64,000 bases of DNA. Source: Chloroflexota bacterium. Lineage in GTDB: Bacteria > Chloroflexota > Dehalococcoidia > Bin125. The DNA lies in assembly GCA_026705025.1 (NCBI GenBank), contig JAPPBN010000030.1, positions 12,822-76,821 of the forward strand, in the 5' to 3' direction. Below the pieces are notes generated by a model. The model was not told the DNA's origin, ran no database searches, and was given only the letters and a program-made list of their open reading frames with translations. This document shows positions 36,442-58,760 of the stretch, piece by piece. The position numbers were made by a program, and so were the translations under genes. Each line of letters starts with the position of its first letter. Positions within the stretch are counted from its first letter, which is position 1.

Positions 36442-36503
36442 CCTATTGTGCCCCCGGCAACACCCTCAAACTTGGAGGCCCCTACGAGATACAAGATCTG
36501 GTT

Positions 36504-36675: not shown

Positions 36676-36799
36676 CAGAACGCGCGATTCTCAGTCCACA
36701 ACAGCAGATCAACCAATCGCCTCCCAAAATCGCCCGCCCGCCCCACATCCCTCCCGGATCGGTGATTGGGCCCTCGATCGCTGCAAGTATCCTGACCCA

Positions 36800-39226
36800 A
36801 TGCTCAACGACACCCGAATTCTCGACCTCACCGACGAACCGCTCGCCCTCGGCGCGCGCATGCTCGCCGATATCGGCGCCGACGTCGTCCGCATCGAAGA
36901 CGCCCGCGGCGACCAGCTCCGCATGCGCGAACCAGCCATCAATGGCGACGCGCCCAGGGCCGAGCGCGGCTGGGCCCACCTGCTCTACAACGCCGGCAAG
37001 CGCTCCGTCGCCGTCAATGTCGACGATCCCGAGACCTGGACCCGGATCGAATCGCTGCTGCCGCACTTCGACGTAGTCCTCGCCCCGCTGGAACCGGCCG
37101 ATGCGCTGGCCGACTGGCTCGAACGCGGCCGCAACGGCGAGTGGTCCGCCGAGATCCCCATCGTCGACGCCGTCTTCCGCCGAGGCGCCGACGAGCCGAT
37201 GACCGACCTCACCGCCATGGCCGCCGGCGGACACATCGTGCTCAACGGCCATCCCGAAGACCCGCCCGTCTGGCCGGCCGGCAACCTCTCCCACAAGCAA
37301 GGCTCAATCGCCATGGCCGAGGCAGCCATGGCCCTGATCATGCAGCGTCGACGCGGCGGCGAGGTCGGCCGGATCACGGTCGGCATCCAGGAAGCGGTCA
37401 CCTTCACCACCCTGCAGACCGCCAGCGGCAACTGGTGGACCTGGCACGGCACCTCGCCCAGCCGCCACATCCCCATCGGCTCCGGCGTCACCTTTCAAGC
37501 CAAAGACGGCCACTGGCTCTCCTTCACCATCCACCCGCCGCACTGGTACCGATTCGTCAACTGGGTCGACGACGTGCTCGGCCTCGAAGAGGGCGAACTC
37601 AGAGGCGAAGACTGGGACGACGAGTTCTGGCGCGAGCAGCACCAACCAGAGATCGTCCCCTGGATCGACCGCCTCTGCAAGGCCCTCACCGTGGCTGAAC
37701 TGCACGACAAGGGCCAGGAACTCGGACTCCTCGTCCTACCGATCAACACGGTCGAGGAAGTCGCCAACGACCCCCACTTGATTGCAAGGGGCTACTACCA
37801 GTCCGTCGACCACCCCCAGCTGGCAACCAGCCTCATCCTCCCCCGCTCCCCAATCCGAACCCGAGGCGAACAAACCCGCGCCCGGCGAGCCCCCACCCTC
37901 GGCGAGCACAACCGCGAGATTCTCCAGACCTTCCCTTCCGGGGGAGATGCCGCGGAGCGGCCCAGGGGCCCCGCTCCAAACCAGGCGCCAGTCCTCTTCA
38001 ACGGCACACCCCCGCCACCACGAAAACCCCTCGACGGCCTCCGAGTCCTCGACTTCACCTGGGCCATCGCCGGCTCGCTCGGCACCCGGCTGCTCGCCGA
38101 CCTCGGCGCAGATGTGCTGAAGATCGAATCCGAATCGCGAATCGACCCGATCCGCTATCGAGGCGTCCAGCCGCCCGACCACTTCTCGATCAACACCAAC
38201 GGCACCTTCAATGACTGCTCCGGCGGCAAGAAGTCGGTCACGCTCAATCTCAAGACTGAAGAGGGAATCGAAGCCGTCCGCGAACTGGCCCAGCATGCCG
38301 ATCTCGTCACCTCCAACTACACCCCCTACCGGCTCGACCGCTGGGGCATCGGCTATGACGATCTGCGCCAGCTCAAGCCGGACATCATCGTCTGCAACGT
38401 CGCCGTCATGGGCATCGAGGGTCCGCGCGCCGAATGGCGCTCCTACGGCAACGGGATCGTCGCCATGTGCGGTCTTGCCCATCGCTCCGGATTCCCCGGT
38501 AAAGCGCCGATTGGACTCGGAACCCTGCACACCGATTTCACCGTCCCCTACTACCTGTCAACCTCAGTCATGGCCGCCCTCGACCATCGAGAGCGCACTG
38601 GCGAGGGCCGCTACCTCGAGATCGCCCAGTACGAGACTGCCGTCCAACTGCTTGACACCGAACTCATCGAAGCACTCAACGGTGCAGCTGAGCGTCCACG
38701 GATCGGAAATCGCTCGCTCTTCATGTCGCCGCACGGCGTCTTTCCCGCCGCCGGGGACGAGCGCTGGGTCGCGATCGCATGCCGCGACGACACCGACTGG
38801 CGCAGCCTCTGCCGGGTCATGGGCCGCGCCGACCTCGCGGCGAGGCCAGAGCTCGACAGCCTCGCCGGGCGCCAGGCCAACGAGGACGAGCTGGAAGCCG
38901 CCATTGCCAGCTGGACCCAAGCCCAGGACGACTGGACCTCGTACCGACTGCTGATCAATGCCGGAGTCCCCGCCAGCCCGGTCGAGCGTCTCGAGGACTT
39001 CTTCGACGGCCAGGACCGCGCGATGAGAGACAACTACAACCCTGCGGAATCGCCCGAGGGCTGCACATTCCAGATCCAGCAGGAGCCAATCATCTGGGAC
39101 GGCGAGCGCCTCCCCGCTGTCCGCGCTCCGATCTGGAGCGAGCACACCGAGGAAGTGCTCAAGGGTCTGCTGGGCTACAGCGACGACGATATGACCCGCC
39201 TCGCCGCCGCCGGCACGCTGGGTTAG
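36800..39226 (+). CDS. fused two-module family III CoA-transferase
   Basis: 808 aa from ATG 36800. Module 1 has TRILDLTDEPLALGARMLADIGADVVRIED...APTLGEHNREIL. A linker follows, then module 2 with LRVLDFTWAIAGSLGTRLLADLGADVLKIES...APIWSEHTEEVL. The 118 upstream codons of the tracked ORF run through repeats and are not coding. Confidence 0.85.
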   Translation: MLNDTRILDLTDEPLALGARMLADIGADVVRIEDARGDQLRMREPAINGDAPRAERGWAHLLYNAGKRSVAVNVDDPETWTRIESLLPHFDVVLAPLEPADALADWLERGRNGEWSAEIPIVDAVFRRGADEPMTDLTAMAAGGHIVLNGHPEDPPVWPAGNLSHKQGSIAMAEAAMALIMQRRRGGEVGRITVGIQEAVTFTTLQTASGNWWTWHGTSPSRHIPIGSGVTFQAKDGHWLSFTIHPPHWYRFVNWVDDVLGLEEGELRGEDWDDEFWREQHQPEIVPWIDRLCKALTVAELHDKGQELGLLVLPINTVEEVANDPHLIARGYYQSVDHPQLATSLILPRSPIRTRGEQTRARRAPTLGEHNREILQTFPSGGDAAERPRGPAPNQAPVLFNGTPPPPRKPLDGLRVLDFTWAIAGSLGTRLLADLGADVLKIESESRIDPIRYRGVQPPDHFSINTNGTFNDCSGGKKSVTLNLKTEEGIEAVRELAQHADLVTSNYTPYRLDRWGIGYDDLRQLKPDIIVCNVAVMGIEGPRAEWRSYGNGIVAMCGLAHRSGFPGKAPIGLGTLHTDFTVPYYLSTSVMAALDHRERTGEGRYLEIAQYETAVQLLDTELIEALNGAAERPRIGNRSLFMSPHGVFPAAGDERWVAIACRDDTDWRSLCRVMGRADLAARPELDSLAGRQANEDELEAAIASWTQAQDDWTSYRLLINAGVPASPVERLEDFFDGQDRAMRDNYNPAESPEGCTFQIQQEPIIWDGERLPAVRAPIWSEHTEEVLKGLLGYSDDDMTRLAAAGTLG
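37925..37972. repeat. REP family 1 copy inside a coding region (interdomain linker)
   Basis: cagaccttcccttccgggggagatgccgcggagcggcccaggggcccc, about 42/48 identical to the intergenic copy at 4644-4691. Confidence 0.75.
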
Positions 39227-39741
39227 CTCTGCCAGCGCCCCTTGCCCCAACCGCCCATGCCATCCCGATCGAAGCCGTTGTTCACGACATCTTCAATCCG
39301 GGTCGCTGCCTCCGACTTCTTCGTCTCGGCCTCTTCATCGGTCAGCTTGCCGGCCTCCACGGCCGCGTCGATCCGCTCGTTGGCCTTGACGACCAGCGCG
39401 TCGATCACCGTCTGCGCATCGACGCCGTTCTCCCCGGCAATCTCGGCCAGCGTCTTGCCTTCGGCGAGCGCAGTCTTCAGTCCGTCGACATCCGTGCCCA
39501 CCAGCTCGGCCAGCGCTGAAACACCGGCGCCGAACTTGCCGTGACCCCTGCGGCCTTCGCAGTCTTCCTTCTCCGATTCTCCTTCGCCCTCCGAGAATTG
39601 CTGGCCATGTTGAGTGCGATTGCCGTCTTCCGAACGTGCCGAGATGACCGTCACTGCTGCGACCCCGATCGAAGCAACCAGCGCCAGCGGCAGGAGCCAC
39701 TTGTAGGCCAGACCAATCCAGCGATTCGAAATTGTTTCCAC
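39223..39741 (-). CDS. hypothetical N-terminally anchored/secreted protein
   Basis: 172 aa. N-terminal TM WLLPLALVASIGVAAVTVI, then an acidic and helical region. Confidence 0.5.
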   Translation of the reverse strand: METISNRWIGLAYKWLLPLALVASIGVAAVTVISARSEDGNRTQHGQQFSEGEGESEKEDCEGRRGHGKFGAGVSALAELVGTDVDGLKTALAEGKTLAEIAGENGVDAQTVIDALVVKANERIDAAVEAGKLTDEEAETKKSEAATRIEDVVNNGFDRDGMGGWGKGRWQS

Positions 39742-39862
39742 CGGTCATTCCCTTCTTGCATCTGGGGGCCGTCCCCGATGCAAGAAACCTATGGAGACGA
39801 CGTAAGCGCCATCCGACCGGCAGGTATGCAGAGCGTCAACGCTCGGTGAAGTCTGGCGCTGG

Positions 39863-41206
39863 CTAGGGAATCTCGGGGTCGTAGTCCATCCCGATATGGC
39901 CGCGCTCCCGGAACGCCTCGTATTCCGACTCCGGATAGCCCAGCACCTCGCGATAGACGTAGTCGTTGTCTTCGCCCAGCGCGACCGCCGGCTTACGGAT
40001 CCCCAGCGGCGTCTCCGAGAACCTCATGAACGGCGTGTTGTAGCGGAACGAACCCACGTCGTCGTAAAGGTCGTGCTCTTCGTTCAGACCCCGGTGCTGC
40101 ACATGCGCATCGTCGTAGATCCGCGATGAATCCAGCACAGGCGCCGCGGGCACGCCGTGCGACTGCAACACATGCATCAGCTCATAATCCGTCTGAGTCG
40201 ATGTCCATTTCGCAATCTGCTCGTCCAGTAGGTCGTGACCTTCCAGACGCCCCGCCTCTCGCCGCAGTTCCGGCGCGCTTGCCCATCCCGGATCGCCCAT
40301 CGCCGCTCGCAGACCCAGCCACTGGTCGTCATCCATCACCGAGATCGAGATCCAGCGGTCGCTGCCGTCCGTCCCGTCGCCGTCCGATTTCGCCGGATAG
40401 AGGTTGTACGGAGCGTGTCCGTTGACCGATCGATTGCCGATCCGTTCCTGCACGACCCCATTGAACGAGTAGTCCATGAAAGCCTGTGCCAGCATCCCTC
40501 CTGCGCACTCCGCCTGCGCCAGCTCAATGAACTGGCCCTCGCCCGTCCGACGCCGGTGCCGCAGCGCCGCCATAATCGCGAACGCCGCGTGCGCCCCGGC
40601 GACATAATCCCCGGAAAAGATCGAAGTGATGTAGGACGGGTCAAGGTCGGGATAGCCGCGCAACAGCGTGTGTCCCATTACCGACTCGAGATGCACGCCC
40701 AACGCGCGTGCGAAGCGGTAGGGACCGTTCGACCCGTATGCGGGCATTCGCAGGGCGATGATGTCCTCGCGCGACTGACGCAAGAAGTCCGGTCCAATGC
40801 CCAGCTTTTCCAGCGTGCCCGAGGCATTGTTTTCGACCAGCGCATCCGATTTCGAGACCAGGTTAGCGAAGATCTCGCGACCTTCGTCGGAGACGAGATC
40901 GACGGTCATCGAGTGCTTGTTGCGGAACTGCTGGACGAAGGTCGGCGCGTAGTTCCAGGGCCGCGGTCCAGGTTCTGCGTTTGGGTAGCCCACCGCCCAG
41001 CCTGCGCCGGCTTTGACCATCTCCGCCGACGGCCGGGCCTGTCCGCCCCGGGTCATCGGTTGCCAGACGTGGATGTTCTCGACTTTGATCACTTCGGCGC
41101 CAAGGTCGGCCAACAGCGTTGTCCCGAAGGTCCCCGCCCAGACCACAGTCAGGTCAATCACGCGAATGCCAGAGAGTGGCAGAGTCAAGGCTGGATCGCT
41201 ACTCAC
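39863..41206 (-). CDS. family III CoA-transferase
   Basis: IRVIDLTVVWAGTFGTTLLADLGAEVIKVEN. GTG 41206 preferred (8-nt overlap with the upstream stop); ATG 41251 is the maximal ORF. Confidence 0.85.
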   Translation of the reverse strand: MSSDPALTLPLSGIRVIDLTVVWAGTFGTTLLADLGAEVIKVENIHVWQPMTRGGQARPSAEMVKAGAGWAVGYPNAEPGPRPWNYAPTFVQQFRNKHSMTVDLVSDEGREIFANLVSKSDALVENNASGTLEKLGIGPDFLRQSREDIIALRMPAYGSNGPYRFARALGVHLESVMGHTLLRGYPDLDPSYITSIFSGDYVAGAHAAFAIMAALRHRRRTGEGQFIELAQAECAGGMLAQAFMDYSFNGVVQERIGNRSVNGHAPYNLYPAKSDGDGTDGSDRWISISVMDDDQWLGLRAAMGDPGWASAPELRREAGRLEGHDLLDEQIAKWTSTQTDYELMHVLQSHGVPAAPVLDSSRIYDDAHVQHRGLNEEHDLYDDVGSFRYNTPFMRFSETPLGIRKPAVALGEDNDYVYREVLGYPESEYEAFRERGHIGMDYDPEIP

Positions 41207-42419
41207 CCAGCGCTCCCGTCGCTCGCAGATCCCCGATCTCTGACGAGCCAAACCCGCACTCCGACAACACCTCGTCCGTGTGCCCCCCCAGCTTGGGCGC
41301 CGGGCGCCTCAGCGACCAGGGTGAGGCCGACATCATGAACGGGCGGCCGGGAATCTGGACTTCACCCAACTCGTCGTGATTGGTCTCGGCCCAGAAGCCG
41401 CGATCGCTGAAGTGGGTGTCTTCGAAGAGCTCGTCGACCGAGAACAGTGGGCCGCAGAGCACCTTCGCCTCTCGCGCCTCGGCCCAGATCTCACGTTTGG
41501 TCCGCTCAAGCGCCCAAGGCAAGAAATGGGCGTTGAATTCTTCAACCAGCGCCGGATTTACTCCGGCGCCCGGCCGCCACCACTTCTCCTCCTGCAGCCA
41601 CTCGGGGCTGCCTAGCATCTCGTCCAGGCGCGGGACCCGAATCGCGGCACCCGAAAATTCCACGTAGCCATCGGCGCAGGGATAGACGCCCGATAGCATG
41701 CCCGCCGCCGGACCGGGCGCGCGCAGCGACTTGCGCCCGGCGTACTCCCAGCCCATGGTTGTCGCGTGGCGGCGGTCGACGCCGTTGAACTGTGCATCGG
41801 CCATGGCGAAGTCGACGTGCTGGGCGATGCCCTGCAGCTCGGCCGAGGTCAACGCTCCCATCGCCGCGGCCGCCGCTGCCGAGCCGCACTCGACGAGCGA
41901 AGCAGTGCCGTACATTTTGACCGGCTCACGATCCTGTACGCCGATCGAGTACATCTCACCGGCGAACCCGTACAGCACCAGGTCCGAGACCCGGTAGTCG
42001 CGGTAGGGCGAGTCGTGGCCGAACGGCGTGATCGAGACCATCGGCAGGTCGCCGCGCGACGCGCTCACCTGCTCCCAGCCGTAACCCAGCGACTCCAGCC
42101 GCCCGGCCGGCTGCGACTCGATTACGATGTCGGCCCGCCGCAACAGCCGCTCCATCACCGCTCTCGCCTCTTGCCGTTCCAGGTCAAGCACCATCGAGCG
42201 CTTGTTGGTGTTGAAGTAGAAGAAGGTCCCGGACCGTTCCGGCCCGCTGACGCCCTGATACCAGGGCCCGACTGACCGCGACGGATCGCCGCCGGGCGGC
42301 TCAACCTTGATCACGTCCGCGCCGAAGTCGGCAAACAGCTTGGTGCAGTACGGACCCGCGACGTGCTCGGTCAGATCGAGAACGGTGACGCCTTCGAGGG
42401 GTCCAGCTGGGTCCGCCAT
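41199..42419 (-). CDS. family III CoA-transferase
   Basis: 406 aa from ATG 42419: MADPAGPLEGVTVLDLTEHVAGPYCTKLFADFGADVIKVEPP. Confidence 0.85.
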   Translation of the reverse strand: MADPAGPLEGVTVLDLTEHVAGPYCTKLFADFGADVIKVEPPGGDPSRSVGPWYQGVSGPERSGTFFYFNTNKRSMVLDLERQEARAVMERLLRRADIVIESQPAGRLESLGYGWEQVSASRGDLPMVSITPFGHDSPYRDYRVSDLVLYGFAGEMYSIGVQDREPVKMYGTASLVECGSAAAAAAMGALTSAELQGIAQHVDFAMADAQFNGVDRRHATTMGWEYAGRKSLRAPGPAAGMLSGVYPCADGYVEFSGAAIRVPRLDEMLGSPEWLQEEKWWRPGAGVNPALVEEFNAHFLPWALERTKREIWAEAREAKVLCGPLFSVDELFEDTHFSDRGFWAETNHDELGEVQIPGRPFMMSASPWSLRRPAPKLGGHTDEVLSECGFGSSEIGDLRATGALGE

Positions 42420-42536
42420 GCGTCGGAGTGTAGGGGTAGCGTCGAAACACAGGCTCGGCAGCCGCGCTTCTCCAATGCGAACCGCAGCCGTTCTGAACAT
42501 AGAGCAGATAAACCAGGTATCCGCTATATTGACCAC

Positions 42537-42767
42537 ATGGCAGCAATGAATCCGATCCTTCGCATTCGCCGGGCATTCCGAGAGTTCGGCGCGACCTCCG
42601 CACAGGCCGACGAAGCGGTGAGCGCCGTTGACGAGTACTACGTGAGCCGGCAAGAGTTCGATGACCGGATCAGGGCCATCATGGCAGAGCAGACCAACCG
42701 CATACTCCTAGGCACATTCGTCCTGCTCAGCATCGCCGTCGGCGTGATTCTCGCTTTCGTCGCCTGA
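42537..42767 (+). CDS. small tail-anchored membrane protein (DUF1640-like architecture)
   Basis: 76 aa, MAAMNPILRIRRAFREFG...C-terminal TM LLGTFVLLSIAVGVILAFVA. Confidence 0.55.
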   Translation: MAAMNPILRIRRAFREFGATSAQADEAVSAVDEYYVSRQEFDDRIRAIMAEQTNRILLGTFVLLSIAVGVILAFVA

Positions 42768-43049: not shown

Positions 43050-44426
43050 TCAATCCGGATGACGCGCGATCTGGCCTCTCGGTTTTGTCGTGATCACAGC
43101 CGTCCCGGTTCTGAACGGTTTCAGGATCGTCAGTTCGTGCATGTAGCGGTCCGCGTCGAGGAGGTCGTCGTTCAGTTTCTTCGGTTTGGGCGATTGCTCG
43201 CCTGATTTCAGGTCCCACTGGTACTCGCGCATCCGCTCCGGAAAGCGGTGCATGGGCGGGGTGTAGTAGGAACCGGGCGGATCCTGACTGAGTCGCTGTT
43301 GGACCAGGCTGATGCCCCAGTTGAGAGAGTCCGGTCCTCCCTTACTGGGCACGACCCTGTGCCCCTGGCGGCGTTGATGATCGATCCAGGCCGACTGCGA
43401 GCGATCGGCGCACCACTGGATCGGGCCCAGCTTGCGCTGCCAGTGATGTTGCCATTGCTCGAGCCGTTCCGTCACGCCGGGCCCGCGATCTTCGAACTCA
43501 CCGAGACGGATCAGCACGTTGGGACCGCAGGGCGCGCGATTGGAGGTGATTCCGGCGACGACTCCAGCCGTGTAATGGTCACGCGGCGACTGCCCGCCGA
43601 AGTCGAGTCCTCCGATGTATCTGGCGAACGGGGGCAGCGGGGCGTCCCAGAGCTGGCGTCGGGGATCGAAGTCGGGGTAGATCTGACCCTCGAACGCATC
43701 GAAGCGGCCCTCGATGAAGCGCTGGACCCACTCGCCGGGCTGCAGCGCCTGCTGCTGAGCGGCATAGTTGTCGGGCAGGTGCGGGTTGTCGGGAATCCTG
43801 GCGGGGATGTACACGATCCTGCCTGCGGCCTCGGCGAATGCGGATTCGTCCAGCTCACGACGAGCAAACCAGCGCTCGAACCACCCAGGCCAGGGATTGG
43901 AGGCGGCGACGAACCAACGTTGGGGCTGCGCCGGATGCCTGAGACGGGTCAAGAGCATCTGCGCGGCCTCCTCGGCCACTTCGCCGGCTTCGTCGACAAA
44001 GACCGCGCCGTACTGTTCCGATCCCAGCCCAGTCCACTCCGACAGATGCCGAAAGTGGATCGTCGAGCTCACTCCGCCAGGCCAGGCCACATCTCGGATT
44101 GACACCCATTGCGGCGCCGATCGTTGCCGACCGACTATGAGGCGCTCCGGCAGACATTCGAAGAACTCACGCATCGTGGTGGTCTGTAGATCGGAGTAGT
44201 GCTGCCGCGCGACGAGGATGTTCGTCCCGGGATAAGAGAGTGCAGTATCGATCGCCAATTCAGCGATCGCGCGGGTCTTGCCGCCGCCCATCGCGCCGCC
44301 GTAGCCAACCAGAGTCGTGCCGCCGGCCGGCGTCTGGCGCAGAGCGTCGTACACCGCGAGTTGCCGAGCGGTTGGCGTAAATCGTTGCTCCTGGGGCTCA
44401 AGGGCACTCAGGCTACGTGTCGCCAT
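43050..44426 (-). CDS. phage terminase large subunit
   Basis: 458 aa. Walker A GYGGAMGGGKT, Walker B AVFVDEAGE, C-terminal nuclease-type LLDADRY. Confidence 0.8.
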   Translation of the reverse strand: MATRSLSALEPQEQRFTPTARQLAVYDALRQTPAGGTTLVGYGGAMGGGKTRAIAELAIDTALSYPGTNILVARQHYSDLQTTTMREFFECLPERLIVGRQRSAPQWVSIRDVAWPGGVSSTIHFRHLSEWTGLGSEQYGAVFVDEAGEVAEEAAQMLLTRLRHPAQPQRWFVAASNPWPGWFERWFARRELDESAFAEAAGRIVYIPARIPDNPHLPDNYAAQQQALQPGEWVQRFIEGRFDAFEGQIYPDFDPRRQLWDAPLPPFARYIGGLDFGGQSPRDHYTAGVVAGITSNRAPCGPNVLIRLGEFEDRGPGVTERLEQWQHHWQRKLGPIQWCADRSQSAWIDHQRRQGHRVVPSKGGPDSLNWGISLVQQRLSQDPPGSYYTPPMHRFPERMREYQWDLKSGEQSPKPKKLNDDLLDADRYMHELTILKPFRTGTAVITTKPRGQIARHPD

Positions 44427-44778
44427 CGCCCGCTCCCGCTCGTACTCCGGGAGGCTGATCCAGCGGCGGGGTCAATCGCACGACCGGCACGCCTCCCTCG
44501 GGTGTGCTCTCCTTGAACATGCCAATGTCTCTGCCCATGACTTCCCAGGCGCGCAACTGGACGTTCTCCGATGCGCTGCGATAGGCCAGTTGGCGAATCC
44601 CCTGTATCACCTCACTCCTGGTTACCGGCCCCTCGGGAATCTCGACCGCATCCTGTTCACGATCAGACAAAACAATCCTCGCATTCTGCAGTCTCGCCTC
44701 GGCAGGCGAGCCACACGCAATCGACGGAAGAATGCGGTCGATCATATACGTACATCTGTGCGAGGTCGATTTCGCCAC
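44413..44778 (-). CDS. terminase small subunit-like protein
   Basis: 121 aa overlapping the terminase large gene by 14 nt. ...LRAWEVMGRDIGMFKE resembles the helix seen in small terminases. Start uncertain. Confidence 0.35.
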   Translation of the reverse strand: MAKSTSHRCTYMIDRILPSIACGSPAEARLQNARIVLSDREQDAVEIPEGPVTRSEVIQGIRQLAYRSASENVQLRAWEVMGRDIGMFKESTPEGGVPVVRLTPPLDQPPGVRAGAGDGDT

Positions 44779-48688: not shown

Positions 48689-49333
48689 TCATTCAACGTT
48701 GGCCTCGTCGGCCAGACGCCAGATTTCGGCGCAATCGACCTTGAGGCCCACGAGGACGTCTTCGCCGTCAAGCGTTGCTGGACGCTCCAGCAGCTGGGGT
48801 TCCTGAGCAGGGCGGAAGATCCAGACGTTGCAGGCATCGAGGTCGACGAGCCAGCCGAGGCGTACGCCGTAGTGCATCCAGATTTCCATCTTGGTTTGCT
48901 GGTCACGGAGCCGGTCACTGGGGGAGCGGATCTCGACGACGAAGTCGGGGTTGAACGACATCGCGCCTTTGACGTCCTCGCGCATCGCTGTGGCCAGCCG
49001 CTCCGGGCTCACCCATGAGACATCGTGTTCCAGCAGCCGGGTTTGGCCGTTCGCATCGGTCATTCTGTAGCCAGCGCTGGAATCGCGGTTACGACCCCCG
49101 CCGCCACCGATGCGCCAGTTTCCAACCTGTCGCCCAAATTCTGCTCCGACGTCCGAGCTTTCATCACCGGCATGCACGTTGATCACCAACTCCCCGTCGT
49201 CGAGTTCGAACTTCCAGCCCGGGTTTTCGTCGCTGATGCGCTCGAGTTCTTCGTCGCTGATCGCTTCGAGGCCGCAGCCGATGCGGATCAGGCCGGGCAA
49301 GGGTGGTGCGTCGACAGGAGCGGTGGTGGCCAT
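48689..49333 (-). CDS. Uma2-family (DUF820) endonuclease-like protein
   Basis: From ATG 49333. PDFVVEIRSPSD and the WLVDLD-type C-terminus typical of Uma2. Confidence 0.7.
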   Translation of the reverse strand: MATTAPVDAPPLPGLIRIGCGLEAISDEELERISDENPGWKFELDDGELVINVHAGDESSDVGAEFGRQVGNWRIGGGGGRNRDSSAGYRMTDANGQTRLLEHDVSWVSPERLATAMREDVKGAMSFNPDFVVEIRSPSDRLRDQQTKMEIWMHYGVRLGWLVDLDACNVWIFRPAQEPQLLERPATLDGEDVLVGLKVDCAEIWRLADEANVE

Positions 49334-49376
49334 GCCATCTCCATTGCTTGCCGAGATCGTAGCAAGGCGAAGACCG

Positions 49377-50561
49377 CTAGATGACGCCATCTACGGCGAG
49401 CTGTTCCAGTACATCATCGCTGATCCCGAGCATGCCGCCGTAGATTTCGCGGTTGTGCTCTCCCAGCGTCGGCGCCCGATGCTTGACGGCTCCCGGCGTC
49501 CGTGACAGACGCGGCACGATGCCCGGTTGAGGGAGTTCGCCGTGTTGCTCGGATGGGACATCCACAATCTGGTCGCGGGCCGCGTAGTGCTCGTCGTCCA
49601 TGATGTCTGAGGTGGTGTAGACCTTGGTGGCGGGGACGCCATGCTTGTCGAGCAAGTGTTGGGCTTGCTCGAGCGTGAGACTGGCGATCCATTCGCCGAC
49701 AATCTCGTGGATTGCTTCGTAGTGTTGGCGTCGATCTCGATGGACCTCAAAGCGCGGGTCCAGGAGCAGCTCAGGCTGTTCCATGGCGGCGACGAGACGC
49801 TCGAAGGTGCCCTGCGTGGTCGCGTTGATGATCAGATGGTGGCCGTCTGCGGTCTCCCACTGTTCGGCCGGCACGACGCCGGGCCAGTAGTTTCCCGATC
49901 GTTCGCGGTTCCGCCCGGTCATCTGGAACTGCGACGCATGCGTGCCCGACTGCTTCCAGATCGCCTCGTAGAGCGCTACGTCGACATCCTGGCCGATTCC
50001 CCCGTTCACGTCGCGAGCGCGGAGGGCCATCATCGTGCCCATCGCGGCGAAGACGCCGGCGGAGTAGTCGGCGACCATGTAGCCGGGACGCACGGGCGGA
50101 CCATCGGCCCAGCCGGTCTGGTAGGTCATGCCGGCGAAGCCCAGCGCGACCCGGTCGAAACCGGCCCGCTCCCGGTAGGGACCGGTCTGTCCGTAACCCG
50201 ATACCCGCGTCACGATCAGGCCCGGATTGCGCTCTCGCAGCGAGTCGGGCGCGAGGTCCATCTTCTCCAGCGTGCCCGGTCGGAAGTTCTCGATCAGGAC
50301 ATCGGTCTGCGAGCACAGGCTGCGGAACAGATCTTTGCCGCGAGGATCGGCCAGATTGCAGGTCACACCTCGCTGCGAGCGGTTCTCCTGCACATATGAG
50401 ATCGTCCCGTGGTTCGTCTCGCCGGTGCCGGGCCGTTCCAGCTTGATCACGTCAGCGCCAAACTCGGCGAGGATCGTGGCGCAGTGCGGCGCAGCGAGGA
50501 TCTGCCCGGCGTTGATCACAGTGATGCCGTCAAGTGGAGGTCGGAGATTGTTGGTAGTCAT
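49377..50561 (-). CDS. family III CoA-transferase
   Basis: 394 aa from ATG 50561. ITVINAGQILAAPHCATILAEFGADVIKLERP...APTLGEHNREIY. Confidence 0.85.
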   Translation of the reverse strand: MTTNNLRPPLDGITVINAGQILAAPHCATILAEFGADVIKLERPGTGETNHGTISYVQENRSQRGVTCNLADPRGKDLFRSLCSQTDVLIENFRPGTLEKMDLAPDSLRERNPGLIVTRVSGYGQTGPYRERAGFDRVALGFAGMTYQTGWADGPPVRPGYMVADYSAGVFAAMGTMMALRARDVNGGIGQDVDVALYEAIWKQSGTHASQFQMTGRNRERSGNYWPGVVPAEQWETADGHHLIINATTQGTFERLVAAMEQPELLLDPRFEVHRDRRQHYEAIHEIVGEWIASLTLEQAQHLLDKHGVPATKVYTTSDIMDDEHYAARDQIVDVPSEQHGELPQPGIVPRLSRTPGAVKHRAPTLGEHNREIYGGMLGISDDVLEQLAVDGVI

Positions 50562-50799
50562 GGAAGCGAGGATACGAGCAGGTCCACCATCGTCATACCC
50601 GCGCTTGCCGCGGGTATCTCGCCGGGTCCAACATGAACCCTGGTGCCGGGAACAGCGAGATTGCCGCGGCAAGCGCGGCAATGACGAACCCATGACGTAG
50701 CTGTTGAGTTCATGCGGCCGAACGAGATGGGAAGCAGGCGCGGAGGACGTACGATTCGAACAACGGACCGATCAGACGAACATTGAAGAAGCGCGCACC

Positions 50800-52470
50800 A
50801 TGACCTACGACTTCGACCTCGGCGCCTACAGCCGAACGATCACGACCTCCTCGCCCGAGGCGCAGACCTGGTTCGACCGCGGACTGATCTGGACCTACGG
50901 CTTCAACCACGACGAAGCCGTCCACTGCTTCCGACAGGCGGTCGCAGCCGACCCGGATTGCGCCATGGCTCACTGGGGCATCGCCTATGCGATCGGGCCC
51001 AACTACAACAAGCCGTGGGAGGCGTTCGGCCGGAAGGAAGTCGCCCAGGCGCTGACGACGGCCTACGAGGAAGCCAACCTTGCGGTGTCACTGTCCGACG
51101 AATGCACACCGGCGGAGCGCGACTTGGTTGCGGCGCTGCGCCACCGATATCCGCAGACGGAGCCGTTGGACGACATGATGGGCTGGGTCGACGACTACGC
51201 CGACGCCATGCGCGAGGTCTACCGCAACCACTCCGAAGACTCCGATATCGGCTCGCTGTTTGCAGAGGCGATGATGAATCGGACTCCCTGGTCGCTGTGG
51301 AATCTGGAGTCGGGCGAACCGGCGGACGGCGCCGACACGGTCGAGGCGCGCGAGGTGCTGGAGGGTGCCATGGCGCGCATCGCTCATTGCGGCGAGCCGC
51401 GGCATCCAGGCATCCTGCACATGTACATCCACCTGATGGAGATGTCGCCCTTCCCCGAGCTGGCCCTGCGGGCGGCCGACCAGTTGCGCGGGATCGCTCC
51501 CCACTCCGGACACCTGCAGCACATGGCGACGCACATCGACGTGCTCTGCGGTGACTACCTGAACGTCGTCAACTGGAACGAGCGGGCAATCCAGGCCGAC
51601 CGACCGTACGTGGAAGCGCGCGGGCCGTTCAACTTCTACACGATGTACCGGGCCCACAACTATCACTTCAAAATCTACGGCGCGATGTTCCTCGGCCAGT
51701 TCGAGCCGGCGTTAGAGACCGCGCGGGCGATGCAGGGCGAGATTCCCGAGGAGCTTCTGCGGATGGAGACGCCCAACATGGCCGACTGGCTGGAGGCGTT
51801 TGTGCCGATCGATCAGCACGTGCTGGTCCGGTTCGGCAAGTGGGAAGAGATCCTCGAACAGCCGCTGCCGGAGGACCGCGAGCTCTACTGCGTCACCACT
51901 GCGACGATGCGCTACGCGCGGGCGATCGCCCTGGCCACGCTGGGCCGGACCGACGAGGCGGTGGCCGAGGCGAAGGAGTTCGATCGCGCCTTCGAATTGG
52001 TGCCCGACACCCGCTACCAGTTCAACAATCCCAGCCGCGACATCCTCGCCATCGCGCAGGAGATGATGCGCGGGGAGATCGCCTATCGGCAGGGCCAGTT
52101 CGACGCCGCCTTCACGCACCTGCGCCACGCGGTCGAGCTCGACGACCACCTGCACTACGACGAGCCCTGGGGCTGGATGCAGCCCGTCCGCCACGCGCTC
52201 GGAGCGCTGCTGCTGGAGCAGGACCAAGTGTCGGAGGCGCTCGACGTGTACCGCGCCGATCTGGGCTACGACTCATCGGTCAGCCGTCCCCGCCAGCACC
52301 TGGACAACGTCTGGGCGCTGGCAGGCTACGTGGAGTGCCTGGAGCGCACCGGCCAGGACGACCTCGCCGCCGTCGCCCGCCAACGCCTCCACCTCGCCCA
52401 GGCCCGAGCCGACACCGAAGTCCAGTCCTCCTGCTTCTGCCGCCTCGACCTCGGCGAGTGCTGCGAGTAG
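50800..52470 (+). CDS. TPR-like helical repeat protein
   Basis: 556 aa from ATG 50800. AQTWFDRGLIWTYGFNHDEAVHCFRQAVAADPDCAMAHWGIAY and further TPR-like helices. Confidence 0.65.
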   Translation: MTYDFDLGAYSRTITTSSPEAQTWFDRGLIWTYGFNHDEAVHCFRQAVAADPDCAMAHWGIAYAIGPNYNKPWEAFGRKEVAQALTTAYEEANLAVSLSDECTPAERDLVAALRHRYPQTEPLDDMMGWVDDYADAMREVYRNHSEDSDIGSLFAEAMMNRTPWSLWNLESGEPADGADTVEAREVLEGAMARIAHCGEPRHPGILHMYIHLMEMSPFPELALRAADQLRGIAPHSGHLQHMATHIDVLCGDYLNVVNWNERAIQADRPYVEARGPFNFYTMYRAHNYHFKIYGAMFLGQFEPALETARAMQGEIPEELLRMETPNMADWLEAFVPIDQHVLVRFGKWEEILEQPLPEDRELYCVTTATMRYARAIALATLGRTDEAVAEAKEFDRAFELVPDTRYQFNNPSRDILAIAQEMMRGEIAYRQGQFDAAFTHLRHAVELDDHLHYDEPWGWMQPVRHALGALLLEQDQVSEALDVYRADLGYDSSVSRPRQHLDNVWALAGYVECLERTGQDDLAAVARQRLHLAQARADTEVQSSCFCRLDLGECCE

Positions 52471-52572
52471 TTGCCCATCGGAGTTCGCAGGAGACGATCT
52501 GACCTGCCTGGGCGGTGATTTTGGGCTAGTTTTGCTCAATTTCGTGTGCTGGACAGGGAATTTTGGCCGTTT

Positions 52573-52610
52573 GAGTCCAGATTTGTCCAGAAGAGTCCAG
52601 ACCAGTCCGG
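52573..52610. repeat. 10-bp phased GTCCAG repeats
   Basis: gagtccagat ttgtccagaa gagtccagac cagtccgg. Reverse orientation of the array at 36636-36675. Confidence 0.75.
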
Positions 52611-52718
52611 GTGTCGTGAGTGTGAGTGCGGGCCGATCCGGGTGAGTGCGGGAATGTCGGGGGTGGGGTCTAGGGGGTGGTCGGAGCATCGGAGCTCGGC
52701 ACTCTGGGGTTGAGTCGT

Positions 52719-52893
52719 TCAGATGTTCTCATTGTATGCGGAGTCGGGGATGACGGGGTCGGTGGCCCCGGCGTCGAGGGCGGGGAACTGGTGGCGGATG
52801 TATGAAGTGTCGTCTTCGGAGAGGTCGTAGACGGGGAAGAACAGGGCATCGAGGCGGGTGCGGAGCTTGCGGCGCCCGGGTAGATCGCAGTAA
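52719..52893 (-). pseudogene. C-terminal remnant of a larger gene (possibly a DNA methyltransferase/restriction-type C-terminus)
   Basis: Startless open frame reading ...YCDLPGRRKLRTRLDALFFPVYDLSEDDTSYIRHQFPALDAG...NENI* with stop at 52719-52721. The LDA..h..YxLSxEE..YI...FP pattern resembles C-termini of type IIG/BREX-type methyltransferases as I recall them. A G9 run lies just upstream at 52895-52903. Confidence 0.3.
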
Positions 52894-53048
52894 AGGGGGG
52901 GGGCGACAGACGTTTGTCGTGCACATTTGGTCAGGGGTTGGTCATTGGGTTAGGGCCTAGAGAGTGCTTAGGAGTGGGTGGCGTGGATAGCGAGAACGCG
53001 ATAGCATGCGTCAGCCGAAATTTTCGCTTTTGTGAACTGAGGGTAGAA

Positions 53049-55571
53049 ATGCAACTCGCGACCGCCTACGTAAGATTCTATAAGGCATTCAACTACGACT
53101 ACCTTCGGAAGGCTCACCCTGATTTTGAACCGGATCCCTGGGATGTTTTGGAAGACGGTCCAGCATATCCATACATCACAGTCCCCATCGAGTCGAAACT
53201 CACTTGCATTGTCGGTGCTAATGAAGCCGGCAAGAGTCAACTCCTCGACGCGATTCAGTTGGCGCTAAGCACGGAAACCCCAAAGCCGACCGACCTTTGC
53301 CGTTACTCGGAGTTCTTTACGGTGTCCGGAGAACCGCGCGTACCCGACGTCGGTCTCCACTTCAGCCAACTTACGGATGAGGAGTCAGTCGAACTCCAAG
53401 AAGTCGTTGGACGGCAGGGGGGTCCTGCGATCAAATCCTTCAGAATGTTCAAGGTTCATCCCAGGAAAATCTTGCTCTACTTCGACAATGAGGAGGAACC
53501 CCTAGACATTTCAGATCGCGGCGACGAGCTTGCCAAGCTTCTACCCGACGCTGTCAGAATTGAACCAACCTATGAACTCCCAGACAGTGTGCCCATCGGC
53601 GTGCTATTGCCGCCGGGTGCCGAGGGCTCTCTTGATATCGGGCTCGATCGAAGGGATCAGATTGAATTCACTAAGCTGCTCCTGCCGATCATCGAGGCTG
53701 TACGCGAAGATGATGCAGAGACCACGGATCACACCGCGGTCATCGAGCCCCTGATCCAACAGATCAGGAAGGTCGCCCCAATGAGCGAGCGCGATAGGAA
53801 GGAACTGCAGCAACGACAAGCGCTTGCGCGCGACCTACTGGTGGAGATTGCTGGGATCGGCCCGCAAGCAATCAGCGACCTTCAGCAAACATCGCCTGAC
53901 GGAGGGTATGGTCATGCGAGCGCCATTGAGGCCAAGATGAACGGTCAACTGGGCGATGCGTTGAATCTAGCCAAATGGTGGAGTCAGGACAGCGAGTTCC
54001 GATTGAAGATAAACGCGCACGATCAACAGCTGTTGCTTACAGTCCGCGACAGAACGGGGAGCCAGTACACATTCGATGAGAGGAGTCATGGGTTGAAGTA
54101 CTTTCTGAGTTATCTCATTCAGGCTCTGACGCACATGAGGTCCCGGACGGGACGAGAGATACTCCTCATGGATGAACCGGATGCCTTTTTGTCGAATGAA
54201 GGGCAACAAGACCTGTTGCGCGTCTTCGCCGAGTTCACTAGGCCGATCGGAGATGCGCCGGGCGCTCAAGTCATATACGTCACGCATTCCCCCTTCCTCA
54301 TCGACAAGAACCGCGGCGATCGCATTCGCGTGCTGGCGAAGGGCGATAGAGACGAAGGAGTGAGGGTCGTAAAAGATGTCGGCAAGAACCATTTTGAGCC
54401 CATCAGAACGGCGCTGGGGGGATTTGTTGGCGAGTCAGTCTTCATAGGGAACTGCAATCTCGTGGTGGAAGGAATGGCGGATCAGATTTATCTCGCCGGA
54501 TTTTCCGAGATGATTAGTCAAAATGAGGAGGGCATTTCCGCGGAACATCTTGACCTCAATCGTGTAACCTTGGTCCCGGCTGGCGGTGCCTCGGAAGTTC
54601 CCTATCATGTCTATCTGGCCCGGGGCCGAGGTGCGGAGAAACCCGCGTTGGTTGTCCTGCTCGATGGAGATCAAGCCGGAGATGATGCGGTTAGGAAGCT
54701 AAGGAGGGGAGGGCCGGGCAACAAGATGCTGCTAGAAGATAAGTACATTGCGCAGCTCAAGCCAAGCGAGGCTCTCGAGGTTTCAAGTGATCTAGAGCAT
54801 GGCGCGTTGGCGACCGAGGATTTGATTCCTGTTGAGTTGGGGGTGAAGGCCGCGAAAGCCTATTTGACGACAATGAAAGTGCCATACCGCGCGGATCTAC
54901 TCACACCGCAATCCGTGAAGCAGCACCTTGAGGATGCCAAGGGAGTATTCGAGGCGATCGAAAGTGTCGTCGAGGGTGCGATCCAAGGATCGGGCCAAGA
55001 TGAGGTGAGCGAATTCAGGCTATACAAGGTCGCATTTGCTCGTCATGTGGTCGAAGAGTGTCGAAGGGGCAATGGTGATTTGAGAGCCAAGACCCTTTCG
55101 CGATTCAAAGTACTGTTCAGATCGCTTACTAGCATGCAACGCGAAGCGGAATATGAGCGGGCACAAGAGGCAATCACGTCCCGCATAGATCGAGAAGTCA
55201 CGAAGTTTATCAAGGATTGGTTTTCACATGTTACGAAGTCAGATGTGAACACCTTGCTGGAGAGGCTTGGCTACGTCATCGACGACTCAGTAGCCGGAGA
55301 GGCGACTGCTCGAGCGATGTCTCAACTGCGAGTTGAGTTCAATCTGGATGTGAATCCCAATGAACGAATCAAGGTAGGTGATCTTGAGGGATTGAGAGTC
55401 AGGCTCATGGGTCTCAAGGACGCCGGAATTCAAGAATCACAACTCGAGTCGATCACATCGACGGAAGATGAGTCTACGATTGTGGGATCTGGCGCCGCCG
55501 CAGGGGCCACTAATGAAGATGAGATTGATCCGTCCGAGGGAGGCGGCAGTGCCGCGAACCTTGCTTCCTAG
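53049..55571 (+). CDS. OLD-family ABC-type ATPase + Toprim nuclease-like protein (defence candidate)
   Basis: 840 aa from ATG 53049. Walker A IVGANEAGKSQLLDAI, signature-like ERSHGLKYFLSYL, Walker B ILLMDEPDAFLS, VIYVTHSPFLI. Then Toprim-like NLVVEGMADQIYL and VVLLDGDQAGDDA. About 270-aa helical C-terminal extension of unknown function. Visibly AT-richer than its flanks. Confidence 0.8.
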   Translation: MQLATAYVRFYKAFNYDYLRKAHPDFEPDPWDVLEDGPAYPYITVPIESKLTCIVGANEAGKSQLLDAIQLALSTETPKPTDLCRYSEFFTVSGEPRVPDVGLHFSQLTDEESVELQEVVGRQGGPAIKSFRMFKVHPRKILLYFDNEEEPLDISDRGDELAKLLPDAVRIEPTYELPDSVPIGVLLPPGAEGSLDIGLDRRDQIEFTKLLLPIIEAVREDDAETTDHTAVIEPLIQQIRKVAPMSERDRKELQQRQALARDLLVEIAGIGPQAISDLQQTSPDGGYGHASAIEAKMNGQLGDALNLAKWWSQDSEFRLKINAHDQQLLLTVRDRTGSQYTFDERSHGLKYFLSYLIQALTHMRSRTGREILLMDEPDAFLSNEGQQDLLRVFAEFTRPIGDAPGAQVIYVTHSPFLIDKNRGDRIRVLAKGDRDEGVRVVKDVGKNHFEPIRTALGGFVGESVFIGNCNLVVEGMADQIYLAGFSEMISQNEEGISAEHLDLNRVTLVPAGGASEVPYHVYLARGRGAEKPALVVLLDGDQAGDDAVRKLRRGGPGNKMLLEDKYIAQLKPSEALEVSSDLEHGALATEDLIPVELGVKAAKAYLTTMKVPYRADLLTPQSVKQHLEDAKGVFEAIESVVEGAIQGSGQDEVSEFRLYKVAFARHVVEECRRGNGDLRAKTLSRFKVLFRSLTSMQREAEYERAQEAITSRIDREVTKFIKDWFSHVTKSDVNTLLERLGYVIDDSVAGEATARAMSQLRVEFNLDVNPNERIKVGDLEGLRVRLMGLKDAGIQESQLESITSTEDESTIVGSGAAAGATNEDEIDPSEGGGSAANLAS

Positions 55572-55865
55572 TCACGTTCTCATGCGAAGCCAGGTGTTGA
55601 ATCGGACGAGATCGGTCGGTCGGTCAGCATCTTGTGCCTGTGCAAGAGGCGTTGGTCGCTGGTCCGCGTCGGTCAAGCTTCGGCCAACTCTTGCGAAGTT
55701 GCGCAAGGCCTCGCACGGTGGCGAGGACGGAGAATTCTCAGCCGCCCGACCACGCTGATTCCGCCGTCGACGCGATCTCCCCACCAATCGAACACGCGAC
55801 CTCCGTCAAGTCCGACAGCACGAGCGTCGCCCCCCGCCCGTCCGACGCAATATCCGCTACGATAA

Positions 55866-55877
55866 GAACATACGTAC
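55866..55877. promoter_or_regulatory. GAAC-N4-GTAC dyad (operator candidate)
   Basis: ataaGAACATACGTACcg, 24 nt upstream of ATG 55901. Counterpart of 5092-5103. Confidence 0.35.
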
Positions 55878-55900
55878 CGTCTACTGAGAGGCCTGACCCG

Positions 55901-56215
55901 ATGCGCAACCCATTCCACCTCCGAGCCAACATCGACCGACTCTGGCGGCGCTCCGCCGACCACAACCCCGGCTACGTCCGCGTCGCTGCTCTCGACGCCA
56001 TCGTCCGCGAGCTCTACGCGCCTAACGAGCGCGCCCGCGCCAACTACCAGCTCTACCTCGCCACCGACCCCTTCGACGTCGCCCGGCACAAGCTCCGCGA
56101 CCTCTACGACCGGGCTGCCCTGTCCGCCCCCACACTATTCGAAGTCGCCCCCGCGCAGGCGGGGGCCGTCCCCGAGGAGGAAGAACAGCCCGAAGACGAC
56201 GACGACCCCTTGTAA
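55901..56215 (+). CDS. hypothetical small protein with acidic C-terminal tail (paralog B)
   Basis: 104 aa, MRNPFHLRANIDRLWRR...ends EEEEQPEDDDDPL. Paralog of 5129-5431. Followed by a T-rich tract. Confidence 0.65.
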   Translation: MRNPFHLRANIDRLWRRSADHNPGYVRVAALDAIVRELYAPNERARANYQLYLATDPFDVARHKLRDLYDRAALSAPTLFEVAPAQAGAVPEEEEQPEDDDDPL

Positions 56216-56301
56216 CTGCCCCACCCAGCACCACCGTTTTTTTCTTTTTCCAGTCCACCGACCACCTGGCTCTGCCGTGCCTGACCGCTACCTCAGCCGC
56301 A

Positions 56302-57540
56302 TCAAGCGGACGAACCGCCCAACCAGGCCGACTCGGCCGTTGAGGCGATCTCTTCGCCGATCAGCAGCGACGCTGTCGCGCCGGGACTTGGCGCGTTCAG
56401 GATGTGAATCAGGCGATCCTGGTGGGCGATTTCGAAGTCGTCGGCGAGGGTTCCGTCTCGGCGGAGGGCCTGGGCTCGGACTCCGGCTCCTCCCCGGACG
56501 AGTTGGTCGGGTTCGAGGTTGGGCATCAGGCGCTGGAGGGCGCTGACGAAGGCGGACTTGTTGGCGCTGCGCCAGACTTCGCCGAGGCCGGTTTGCCAGT
56601 GGTCGCGGGCGAGGCGGAGGAAGCCGGGCCAGGTGAGCGACTCGGCGGCGTCGCGGAGGGCGACGTCGCGCCAGCGGTAGCCCTCGCGCTTGAGGGCGAG
56701 GACGGCGTTGGGTCCGGCCTCGACGCTGCCGTCCAGGCGTCGGGTGAAGTGAACGCCGAGGAAGGGGAAGGCCGGGTCGGGGACGGGATAGATGAGGTTC
56801 TTGAGCATCCCGCGGGCTGCGGGCACGAGGTCGTAGTACTCGCCGCGGAAGGGCACGATGCGCAGGTTCCGAGCCTCGGGCGCGCCGGAGCGTCGGGCGA
56901 TGCGGTCGGCCTGGAGTCCGGCGCAGTTGACGGCGTACCTGGCGCGGACGATACCGGTCGTGGTGGCGAGCTGGACGCCCTCGGCGTCGACTCGGACGCC
57001 CGAGACGCGCGAGCGCAGACGCACCGATCCGCCGGCGGACTCGAGCAGTTCGCGGTACTTCTCGCAGACGCCTCGATAGTCGGCGATGCCGGTTGAGGGG
57101 ATGTGCAGGGCGGCGACGCCGGCGGCGTTGGGCTCGAACTCGGCCAGCTCGTCAGGTCCGAGTTCGCGGATGTCCGGGACGCCGTTGGCGTCGCCGCGGC
57201 GGTGCAGATCGCGCATGCGCTCGAGTTCGGACTCGTGCGTGGCGACGACGACCTTGCCGCAGCGCTCGGCGCCGATCCCGTGCTCGTCGCAGAACGCGTA
57301 CATGCGCTCGGCGCCGGCGACGGCCATGCGCGCCTTGGCCGAGCCGGGACGGTAGTAGAGGCCGGAGTGGATCACGCCCGAGTTGTTGCCACTCTGGTGT
57401 CGCCCAACGCCCGATTCCTGCTCCAGCGAGACGACGCGCAGCCCCTCATGCTTCGTCGCAAGCGCCATGGCGGTCGAGAGTCCAAGGATGCCGGCTCCGA
57501 TGACGGCGACGTCGGCCGTGTCGGAGTTGTGGTCAGACAC
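56302..57540 (-). CDS. lhgO: L-2-hydroxyglutarate oxidase/dehydrogenase-like FAD enzyme
   Basis: DVAVIGAGILGLSTAMAL FAD fold and HQSGNNSGVIHSGLYYRPGS, as in LhgO. GTG 57540 overlaps the selD stop by 8 nt. Confidence 0.75.
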   Translation of the reverse strand: MSDHNSDTADVAVIGAGILGLSTAMALATKHEGLRVVSLEQESGVGRHQSGNNSGVIHSGLYYRPGSAKARMAVAGAERMYAFCDEHGIGAERCGKVVVATHESELERMRDLHRRGDANGVPDIRELGPDELAEFEPNAAGVAALHIPSTGIADYRGVCEKYRELLESAGGSVRLRSRVSGVRVDAEGVQLATTTGIVRARYAVNCAGLQADRIARRSGAPEARNLRIVPFRGEYYDLVPAARGMLKNLIYPVPDPAFPFLGVHFTRRLDGSVEAGPNAVLALKREGYRWRDVALRDAAESLTWPGFLRLARDHWQTGLGEVWRSANKSAFVSALQRLMPNLEPDQLVRGGAGVRAQALRRDGTLADDFEIAHQDRLIHILNAPSPGATASLLIGEEIASTAESAWLGGSSA

Positions 57541-58636
57541 GCGGAGCCTCGGTCGGCACGACGCTGAGGCGGCCGCCGTCGGCGGCTTCTGTGACTCGGG
57601 CGATGGGTGTCGCCGTGACCCCACGCTCTTGCAGCTCGTTGATCAGGTGGGGGGCTTCGACGATTCCGGCGGCGATCAGCAAGCCTCCGGAGGTCTGGGG
57701 GTCGTAGAGGAGGGCTTCCTCGAACGTGGTGAGCTCCCGGCTGCCTTTGACGGTCAGGCGGGCTCCGTAGTAGTCGCGATTGCGGGACTGTCCGCCTGAG
57801 CCGAATCCGGCCGCGACGGCTTCGGAGAGGCCTCCCAGCGCGGGGGGCGCGCCGAGATCGATCTCGATGGCGGCGTCGCTCAGTTCGGCCATCTCGTGCA
57901 GGTGTCCGGCGAGGCCGAAGCCGGTCACGTCGGCGATGGCGTGCACACCGGCGGCGAGGTCGGGTTCGGTCGCGGCCTCGGCGGCGTCGCGGTTGAGGGT
58001 CATCATCTGGGCGATGGCGGCGTCCCAGTGTTGCTCGGAGACTGCGCCCTGTTGGTTCGCGCCGATCAGGACTCCGGTGCCGATCTCCTTGGTCAGGATG
58101 ATCGTGTCGCCTGGCTGCGCGCCGCCGGTCGTGCGGATCAACTCGCGTGCGACTTCGCCGGTGACGGCGAGCCCGTACTTGGGTTCCTCGTCGATGATCG
58201 TGTGTCCTCCGGCGATGACCGCGCCCGCTTCGCGCACCTTGTCGGCGCCGCCGCGCAGGACGTCGGCGATGATGTCGGGCGGAAGATCCTCGGGGAAGGC
58301 GGCGATGTTGAGCGCGAACAGCACGCGTCCACCCATCGCGTAGACGTCGGACATGGCGTTGGCGGCCGCGATCGCGCCGAATTGGTAGGGGTCGTCGACC
58401 AGCGGGGCGAAGAAGTCGAGCGTCTGCACCAGCGCGCGTTCGTCGTCGATGGCGTAGACGGCGGCGTCGTCGGGGCGTGCGAGGCCGACGAGCAACTGGG
58501 GATGCTCGGATGGCGGGAACTGGGGACCGAGATGGCTCAACACGTGAGCCAGGCCTTCAGGGCCGAACTTGGAGCCTCAACCGCCGCAGCGGGCGAGGTC
58601 GGTGAGGCGGATGGCTCGACTGTCGCGATCGGACAT
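57533..58636 (-). CDS. selD: selenide, water dikinase (selenophosphate synthetase), Sec-containing form
   Basis: ATG 58636 with AGGAGGG 10 nt upstream. MSDRDSRAIRLTDLARCGG-U-GSKFGPEGLAHVLSHLGPQF...DDAAVYAI...DFFAPLVDDPYQFGAIAAANAMSDVYAMGG. The in-frame TGA at 58577-58579 aligns with E. coli SelD Cys17 (GCGCK). The tracked ORF starts only after the TGA. Confidence 0.85.
58534..58550 (-). promoter_or_regulatory. SECIS-like hairpin (selD)
   Basis: GGCUC-ACGUGUU-GAGCC starting 29 nt after the U of UGA. Same stem sequence as the DsbA-like genes. Confidence 0.5.
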
Positions 58637-58760
58637 GTGCGGGCACCCTCCTGTCTGAGTCGCAGCCTATCGCGGTGATGTGGAGGATCTTCAATAGTAC
58701 TTGCGTTCTGGTACCGGTGACCGTAGCCTGTCGCAGATGAGCATGATGAGGAACGCCGAT

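Follow-up and report, generated by a model that had tools for sequence, protein, structure and literature searches.

A UGA-containing selD gene predicted to encode a selenocysteine-type selenophosphate synthetase in a sponge-associated member of the Dehalococcoidia

Introduction

Does the selD gene of a sponge-associated bacterium begin where its listed reading frame begins, or does it extend upstream, through an in-frame TGA that is read as selenocysteine (Sec, U)? The gene lies in a stretch of 64,000 nucleotides (nt), here called the window, from a Chloroflexota bacterium (assembly GCA_026705025.1, contig JAPPBN010000030.1, positions 12,822 to 76,821 of the forward strand). The open reading frame (ORF) listed for it, 57533-58543 on the minus strand, opens at a GTG (58543-58541) situated 31 codons 3′ of an in-frame ATG, and encodes 336 amino acids (aa). 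Comparison of the sequence with related loci and known proteins makes it very probable that the gene encodes a Sec-type SelD of a sponge-associated member of the Dehalococcoidia (Chloroflexota), with the UGA read through by means of a selenocysteine insertion sequence (SECIS). The features concerned are collected in Table 1.

Table 1. Coordinates of selD, its putative recoding signals and related features in the window
Feature	Position	Strand	Remarks
Full-length selD coding sequence	57533..58636	minus	367 codons + TGA stop; one in-frame UGA, predicted to encode Sec, at codon 20
Start codon ATG	58636-58634	minus	First start after an in-frame TAG; invariant in 18/18 clade sequences
Shine-Dalgarno AGGAGGG	58653-58647	minus	9 nt spacer to selD ATG
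UGA predicted to be read as Sec (U20)	58579-58577	minus	Motif C-G-G-U-G-S-K
Hairpin 1, GGCC-CUGAA-GGCC	58564-58552	minus	12 nt after UGA
Hairpin 2, UGGCUCA-CGUGU-UGAGCCA, likely SelB-binding SECIS	58551-58533	minus	Conserved, covarying pairs
lhgO-like flavin adenine dinucleotide (FAD) oxidoreductase	56302..57540	minus	Pfam DAO; NF008726 L-2-hydroxyglutarate oxidase, 522 bits (cutoff 299)
TGA codons of the DsbA-like array	25085-25083, 25759-25757, 26728-26726, 27723-27721, 28511-28509	minus	

Start site and reading frame

The minus-strand sequence at the start of the longer frame reads caggagggtgcccgcacATG TCC GAT ... CGC TGC GGC GGT TGA GGC TCC AAG TTC, and its read-through product begins MSDRDSRAIRLTDLARCGG-U-GSKFGPEGL. 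The TGA in it is the sole in-frame stop ahead of the terminal TGA (57535-57533). A preliminary description of this DNA had already noted the AGGAGGG-ATG at 58636 and a frame open but for the TGA at 58577-58579, and all of these coordinates are correct. It had further proposed that the listed ORF lacks the true N-terminus; this holds, the codons upstream being homologous to SelD and conserved in the manner of coding sequence.

Sequencing error was examined with Logan contigs from four sponge-metagenome runs (different samples, two studies, 8-50x), which show zero differences over 58400-58760. The four independent assemblies are thus identical, TGA included, and an error is excluded. TGA is also the stop codon of 16 of the 43 confident genes in the window, selD among them, so any read-through in selD must be local and dependent on context.

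The catalytic loop

For homology searches the UGA was replaced by a Cys codon. The resulting 367-aa product matches TIGR00476 selD with 359.2 bits (cutoff 125) and NF002098 with 326.9 bits (cutoff 299), and phmmer aligns its residues 7-357 with residues 4-342 of E. coli SelD (PDB 3u0o; E=5e-63). The Asp-containing motifs DDAAVY, DFF, SDxxAMGG and DVTGFG are kept. The full-length product is predicted to act as a selenophosphate synthetase (selenide, water dikinase), making selenophosphate from selenide at the expense of ATP.

At the N-terminus, RLTDLARCGG[U]GSKF stands opposite RLTQYSHGAGCGCKI of E. coli SelD, which is of the Cys type, with U20 on Cys17 and K23 on Lys20. The preliminary description had suggested just this placement of the U and the K; the 3u0o alignment and the 80 related loci described below both bear it out. 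It had also called for an alignment to a characterised SelD, and in the one made here the N-terminal codons are related to the E. coli protein from its residue 4 onwards. The 31 upstream codons therefore represent the SelD catalytic loop and not a leader. The two loops differ in their second Cys, which is at +2 in E. coli (G-A-G-C-G-C-K) and at -3 in the present protein. Both Cys17 and Lys20 are needed for activity of E. coli SelD, so the truncated 336-aa form is expected to be inactive.

Conservation among related loci

When GTDB was scanned at one genome per species, 80 related loci were obtained, nearly all from Chloroflexota and spanning 49-98% protein identity. The nearest are from sponge-derived Dehalococcoidia metagenome-assembled genomes (MAGs) at 97-98%; one of the relatives, L002, shows 94-95% nucleotide identity. 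The codon aligned to the UGA is TGA in 68 loci, TGC in nine and TGT in three. All 68 Sec-type loci have CxxUxxK, that is, a Cys at -3 and a Lys at +3, and are otherwise free of disruptions, while CxxC is found in 10 of the 12 Cys-type loci. Selenoprotein genes are recognised by such a pattern, an in-frame UGA that stands where homologs have Cys and is flanked by conserved sequence.

The segment 5′ of the UGA was followed in a close clade of 18 sequences. Over codons 2-19 the variable columns number 6, 4 and 16 at codon positions 1, 2 and 3, and the peptide RLTDLARCGG is invariant. Every one of the 30 nt 5′ of the ATG is variable; relatives carry GGAG-type motifs near the site of the Shine-Dalgarno sequence, and the rest of the 5′ leader varies. 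Third-position-biased variation, an invariant ATG and a variable leader together indicate that ribosomes cross the UGA. On this pattern, the segment 5′ of the UGA is probably translated and under purifying selection, and selection appears to act on both sides of the codon.

Stored protein sequences give a different picture of the N-terminus. In the protein collection, every close homolog (P0001-P0021) is stored at ~336 aa with the start MLS/RHLGPQF; the named entries of full length that were retrieved from it are of the Cys type. The truncation of selD in stored homologs is systematic, and the 336-aa ORF from GTG 58543 is almost certainly a gene-caller artefact.

Stem-loops downstream of the UGA

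Two hairpins follow the UGA, and nearly every TGA locus has both. Their base pairs were counted in 65 distinct sequences, aligned without gaps. For hairpin 1, 72.7% of cells were paired in TGA loci versus 35% in Cys loci, with mean local minimum free energies (MFE) of -8.4 and -4.25 kcal/mol (Mann-Whitney p=2.6e-4); for hairpin 2 the paired fractions were 89.5% and 50%, and the MFE means -10.3 and -5.2 kcal/mol (p=8.5e-6). Two-sided changes occur in 7 of 10 pairs over both hairpins, including three of the four in hairpin 1. As a register control the 3′ partners were slid, and overall pairing dropped from 83% to 30-49%.

Hairpin 1 covaries although the peptide that it encodes is not conserved. 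At one pair of hairpin 2, 42 sequences have G-C and 10 have U-A, the latter being the state in the sub-clade of the window; one side of this change is synonymous, in an Ala codon, and the other replaces Arg by Ser.

The bacterial SECIS (bSECIS) model of bSECISearch sets a loop of 3-9 nt with a G in its first two positions, an upper stem of 4-16 bp, a spacing of 16-37 nt and an MFE <= -7.5 kcal/mol (PMC13188914). Hairpin 2 lies within all four constraints, with a 5-nt loop (CGUGU, G at position 2), a 7-bp stem, -10.2 kcal/mol and 32 nt from the UGA to the loop. That spacing is close to the upper limit because the conserved hairpin 1 sits between the UGA and hairpin 2. The GTG picked by the ORF caller is the GUG within the apical loop of hairpin 2. 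A scan of the window at Rfam gathering thresholds returned no SECIS family match; its only match was a riboswitch, described below.

Other UGA-containing genes in the window

A tandem array of five DsbA-like genes (Thioredoxin_4/DSBA) occupies 24648-28868 on the minus strand, and in each of them UGA replaces the first Cys of CxxC. After each of these codons comes a hairpin of the form GCGGCUCA-GGU-UGAGCCGC, or closely similar to it, whose loop starts 26 nt after the UGA. The stem arm GGCUCA of selD hairpin 2 recurs in four of the five. Matches to the core GGCTCA-N3-5-TGAGCC number four in the window versus 0.05 expected; selD hairpin 2 is one of them, and the other three are in the array. A single SelB specificity would be expected to give this outcome, six genes within one window that have UGA at a catalytic Cys position and a similar stem-loop.

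Among NCBIfam models, the read-through DsbA-like protein comes nearest to NF041057, "Rcas_1661 family thioredoxin-like (seleno)lipoprotein", at 137 bits, below its cutoff of 190. The DsbA-like N-termini resemble those of lipoproteins (…ACGSG/…ACSGG). The preliminary description took the selD UGA as a sign of Sec decoding that agrees with the array, and the stem core common to both fits that view; the distance of 29 kb given there was wrong, since the array, at 24.6-28.9 kb, is 30-34 kb from selD.

In a plus-strand ORF at 28038-29624, the NYN domain is confined to residues 323-489. Because the 5′ third of this ORF overlaps the fifth DsbA-like gene, which is on the other strand, this third is probably non-coding, and the real start of the NYN gene is likely near 28.9-29.0 kb.

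Weighing the readings

Under Sec insertion, translation would start at ATG 58636, and a SECIS stem-loop within the reading frame would draw SelB with Sec-tRNA(Sec) to the UGA. Hairpin 2 would serve as this SECIS, probably aided by hairpin 1. Sec would then be inserted at position 20, giving an active enzyme whose N-terminal glycine-rich catalytic loop, C-G-G-U-G-S-K, is the counterpart of G-A-G-C17-G-C-K20 in E. coli.

Translation might instead begin at GTG 58543 or another downstream start, giving a 336-aa enzyme without the loop and making the 31 codons an untranslated leader. That ORF is the one listed mechanically and the form stored for all close homologs, but the GTG has no Shine-Dalgarno sequence and sits inside a hairpin loop, the 19 codons ahead of the UGA are conserved as coding sequence (RLTDLARCGG invariant, third positions varying) and homologous to the SelD catalytic loop, and the product should be inactive for want of the residues required in E. 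coli. We hold a downstream start to be extremely unlikely. The TGA could also be a nonsense mutation or a sequencing error, and selD a pseudogene, an in-frame stop within a conserved gene being formally a disruption. Against this, the TGA is shared by 68 of the 80 loci across their whole range of protein identity with no other disruptions, it is identical in the four assemblies, purifying selection is apparent on both sides of it, and the product aligns with SelD at full length; conservation effectively refutes the pseudogene, whose probability we consider negligible. A further alternative is that neither SelB nor a SECIS takes part and a suppressor or near-cognate tRNA reads the UGA as an amino acid other than Sec, for example Cys or Trp. 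It gains from the fact that Sec machinery genes were not found within the window. The ordinary use of TGA as a stop in 16 of 43 genes speaks against a global reassignment, however, and a covarying, SECIS-compliant hairpin is specific to the TGA genes and placed after the codon. In five further genes of the window, UGA stands at a redox Cys and a SECIS-like hairpin follows, its stem having the GGCUCA arm in four cases, and SelB adjoins Sec-type selD in related Dehalococcoidia. Reading as another amino acid is thus very unlikely.

The evidence on SelB comes from tblastn searches with E. coli SelA and SelB sequences that served only as a lead. They gave SelB matches in the related loci L050, L056 and L075, and no SelA or SelB match in the window or the close clade. 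In L050 the SelB gene (7075-8946, minus strand) adjoins a Sec-type selD and was verified by its Pfam domains (GTP_EFTU, Beta-barrel_SelB, SelB-wing_2 and SelB-wing_3); in L056 SelB stands beside a Sec-type selD at ~7758-8918 as a tblastn match only. SelB is abundant among Dehalococcoidia MAG proteins.

Several results count against the decoding of this UGA as Sec. Pfam scans of ~60 ORFs of the window recognised no SelA, SelB or YbbB; ARAGORN found no tRNA gene in its 64 kb, hence no tRNA-Sec, and no tRNA-Sec within 6 kb of selD in 60 relatives. When the L050 SelB was compared with the protein collection, its best 120 matches were all nearer to the L050 lineage, and the SelB of the clade was not reached. 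The pairing and MFE statistics of the hairpins are taken over related loci and are not phylogenetically independent. RNAalifold on the ungapped alignment recovered only three pairs of hairpin 2, an under-call that arises because lower-stem registers vary among lineages and that led us to use explicit pair counting; the single-sequence fold z-score is modest (-2.07). The RNA evidence consists of one 151-nt metatranscriptome contig (57653-57803), which covers the 3′ part of selD, away from the UGA.

Genomic neighbourhood

Downstream of selD is the lhgO-like FAD oxidoreductase gene. There is an 8-nt overlap between the selD stop and the GTG start of this gene, and the two genes are probably co-transcribed. 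The same neighbour is found in 21 of the 80 loci, all from the close clade and none from elsewhere, so relatedness alone accounts for the pairing. A functional link of selD with the FAD oxidase was weighed and rejected, since the protein is clearly an equivalog of L-2-hydroxyglutarate oxidase and the synteny does not extend beyond the close clade. Upstream of selD, and divergent from it, is an ogt gene (methylated-DNA-protein-cysteine methyltransferase).

The observations could be joined in a wider reading, which we regard as improbable. In it the Chloroflexota selD would have a distinct two-hairpin SECIS, the SelB-binding stem of the clade would have been brought, by co-evolution and a change from G-C to U-A, into agreement with the stem of the five periplasmic UxxC DsbA-like selenolipoprotein genes, and the translationally coupled LhgO-type FAD oxidase might be a split analogue of those Ndh-SelD fusions that serve CxxC/CxxU SelDs.

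Additional features of the window

The stretch 52470-56300 has a low GC content (55% versus 64% for the window). It does not align to the relatives L001 and L002, which are otherwise syntenic, and this makes a strain-variable island probable and a defence island possible. An ORF for an 895-aa AAA_21/AAA_15 (AbiEii-like) ATPase lies within it (52884-55571, plus strand).

Paralogs of family III coenzyme A (CoA)-transferase are unusually dense, with six ORFs (20182-22728, 36431-42707 and 49377-50771). In one of them, 36431-39226 (931 aa), CoA_transf_3 is matched in three stretches, so that this ORF may represent a doubled form. The window also has enoyl-CoA hydratase, MaoC dehydratase and acyl-CoA dehydrogenase genes, and a gene for a putative restriction endonuclease of the Uma2 family (48689-49390, minus strand) stands between CoA-transferase and MaoC genes.

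Amid metabolic genes lies a lone ORF similar to the large subunit of phage terminases (Terminase_3/Terminase_6N; 43050-44471, minus strand), and no further phage genes were recognised near it. The riboswitch found in the Rfam scan is of the cyclic di-AMP (ydaO/yuaA) type, at 12790-12956 on the plus strand (87.7 bits).

Discussion

Haemophilus influenzae and Aquifex aeolicus have Sec-containing SelDs, the latter represented by PDB 2zod and 2yye. No bacterial selenoproteins are more widespread than SelD and FdhA, and SelD is documented to have undergone Sec-to-Cys conversions (PMC1794560), in agreement with the remark in the preliminary description that Sec-type SelD is known in some bacteria. 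SelD is also among the most abundant marine selenoproteins, and UxxC DsbA selenoproteins have been described (PMC2398784). In the Global Ocean Sampling (GOS) data CxxU was found in ~5.6% of single-domain Sec-SelDs, and Ndh-SelD fusions carry CxxC (PMC2398784).

The present protein resembles bacterial Sec-SelDs in matching TIGR00476, in having the predicted Sec at the catalytic position of the N-terminal glycine-rich loop with a Lys at +3, and in a candidate SECIS within the coding sequence just downstream of the UGA. Unlike the commoner bacterial Sec-SelDs, which have no Cys at -3, its loop is CxxU (C-G-G-U), and unlike the other Sec-SelDs cited its host is a sponge-associated member of the Dehalococcoidia. 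The motifs are those of the GOS subtypes with CxxU and CxxC, with CxxU in all 68 Sec loci of our mainly Chloroflexota set. There is no fusion of the Ndh-SelD kind; the neighbour is a separate LhgO-type oxidase and not an Ndh domain.

Sec-type SelD, its CxxU variant and bacterial SECIS elements within ORFs are all established, and the present gene opens no new biological question. The local details that it adds are modest: CxxU appears to be universal among the Sec loci of this Chloroflexota set, and a second conserved hairpin stands between the UGA and the SECIS-like hairpin. The practical value lies in annotation. Here and in every close homolog of the protein collection, selD is stored as what should be a catalytically dead 336-aa fragment, and through such calls the use of selenium would be under-reported in metabolic reconstructions of these abundant sponge symbionts. 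Jointly, selD and the five UxxC DsbA-like genes mark this organism as a probable Sec user, with a selenoproteome centred on extracytoplasmic thiol-disulfide chemistry.

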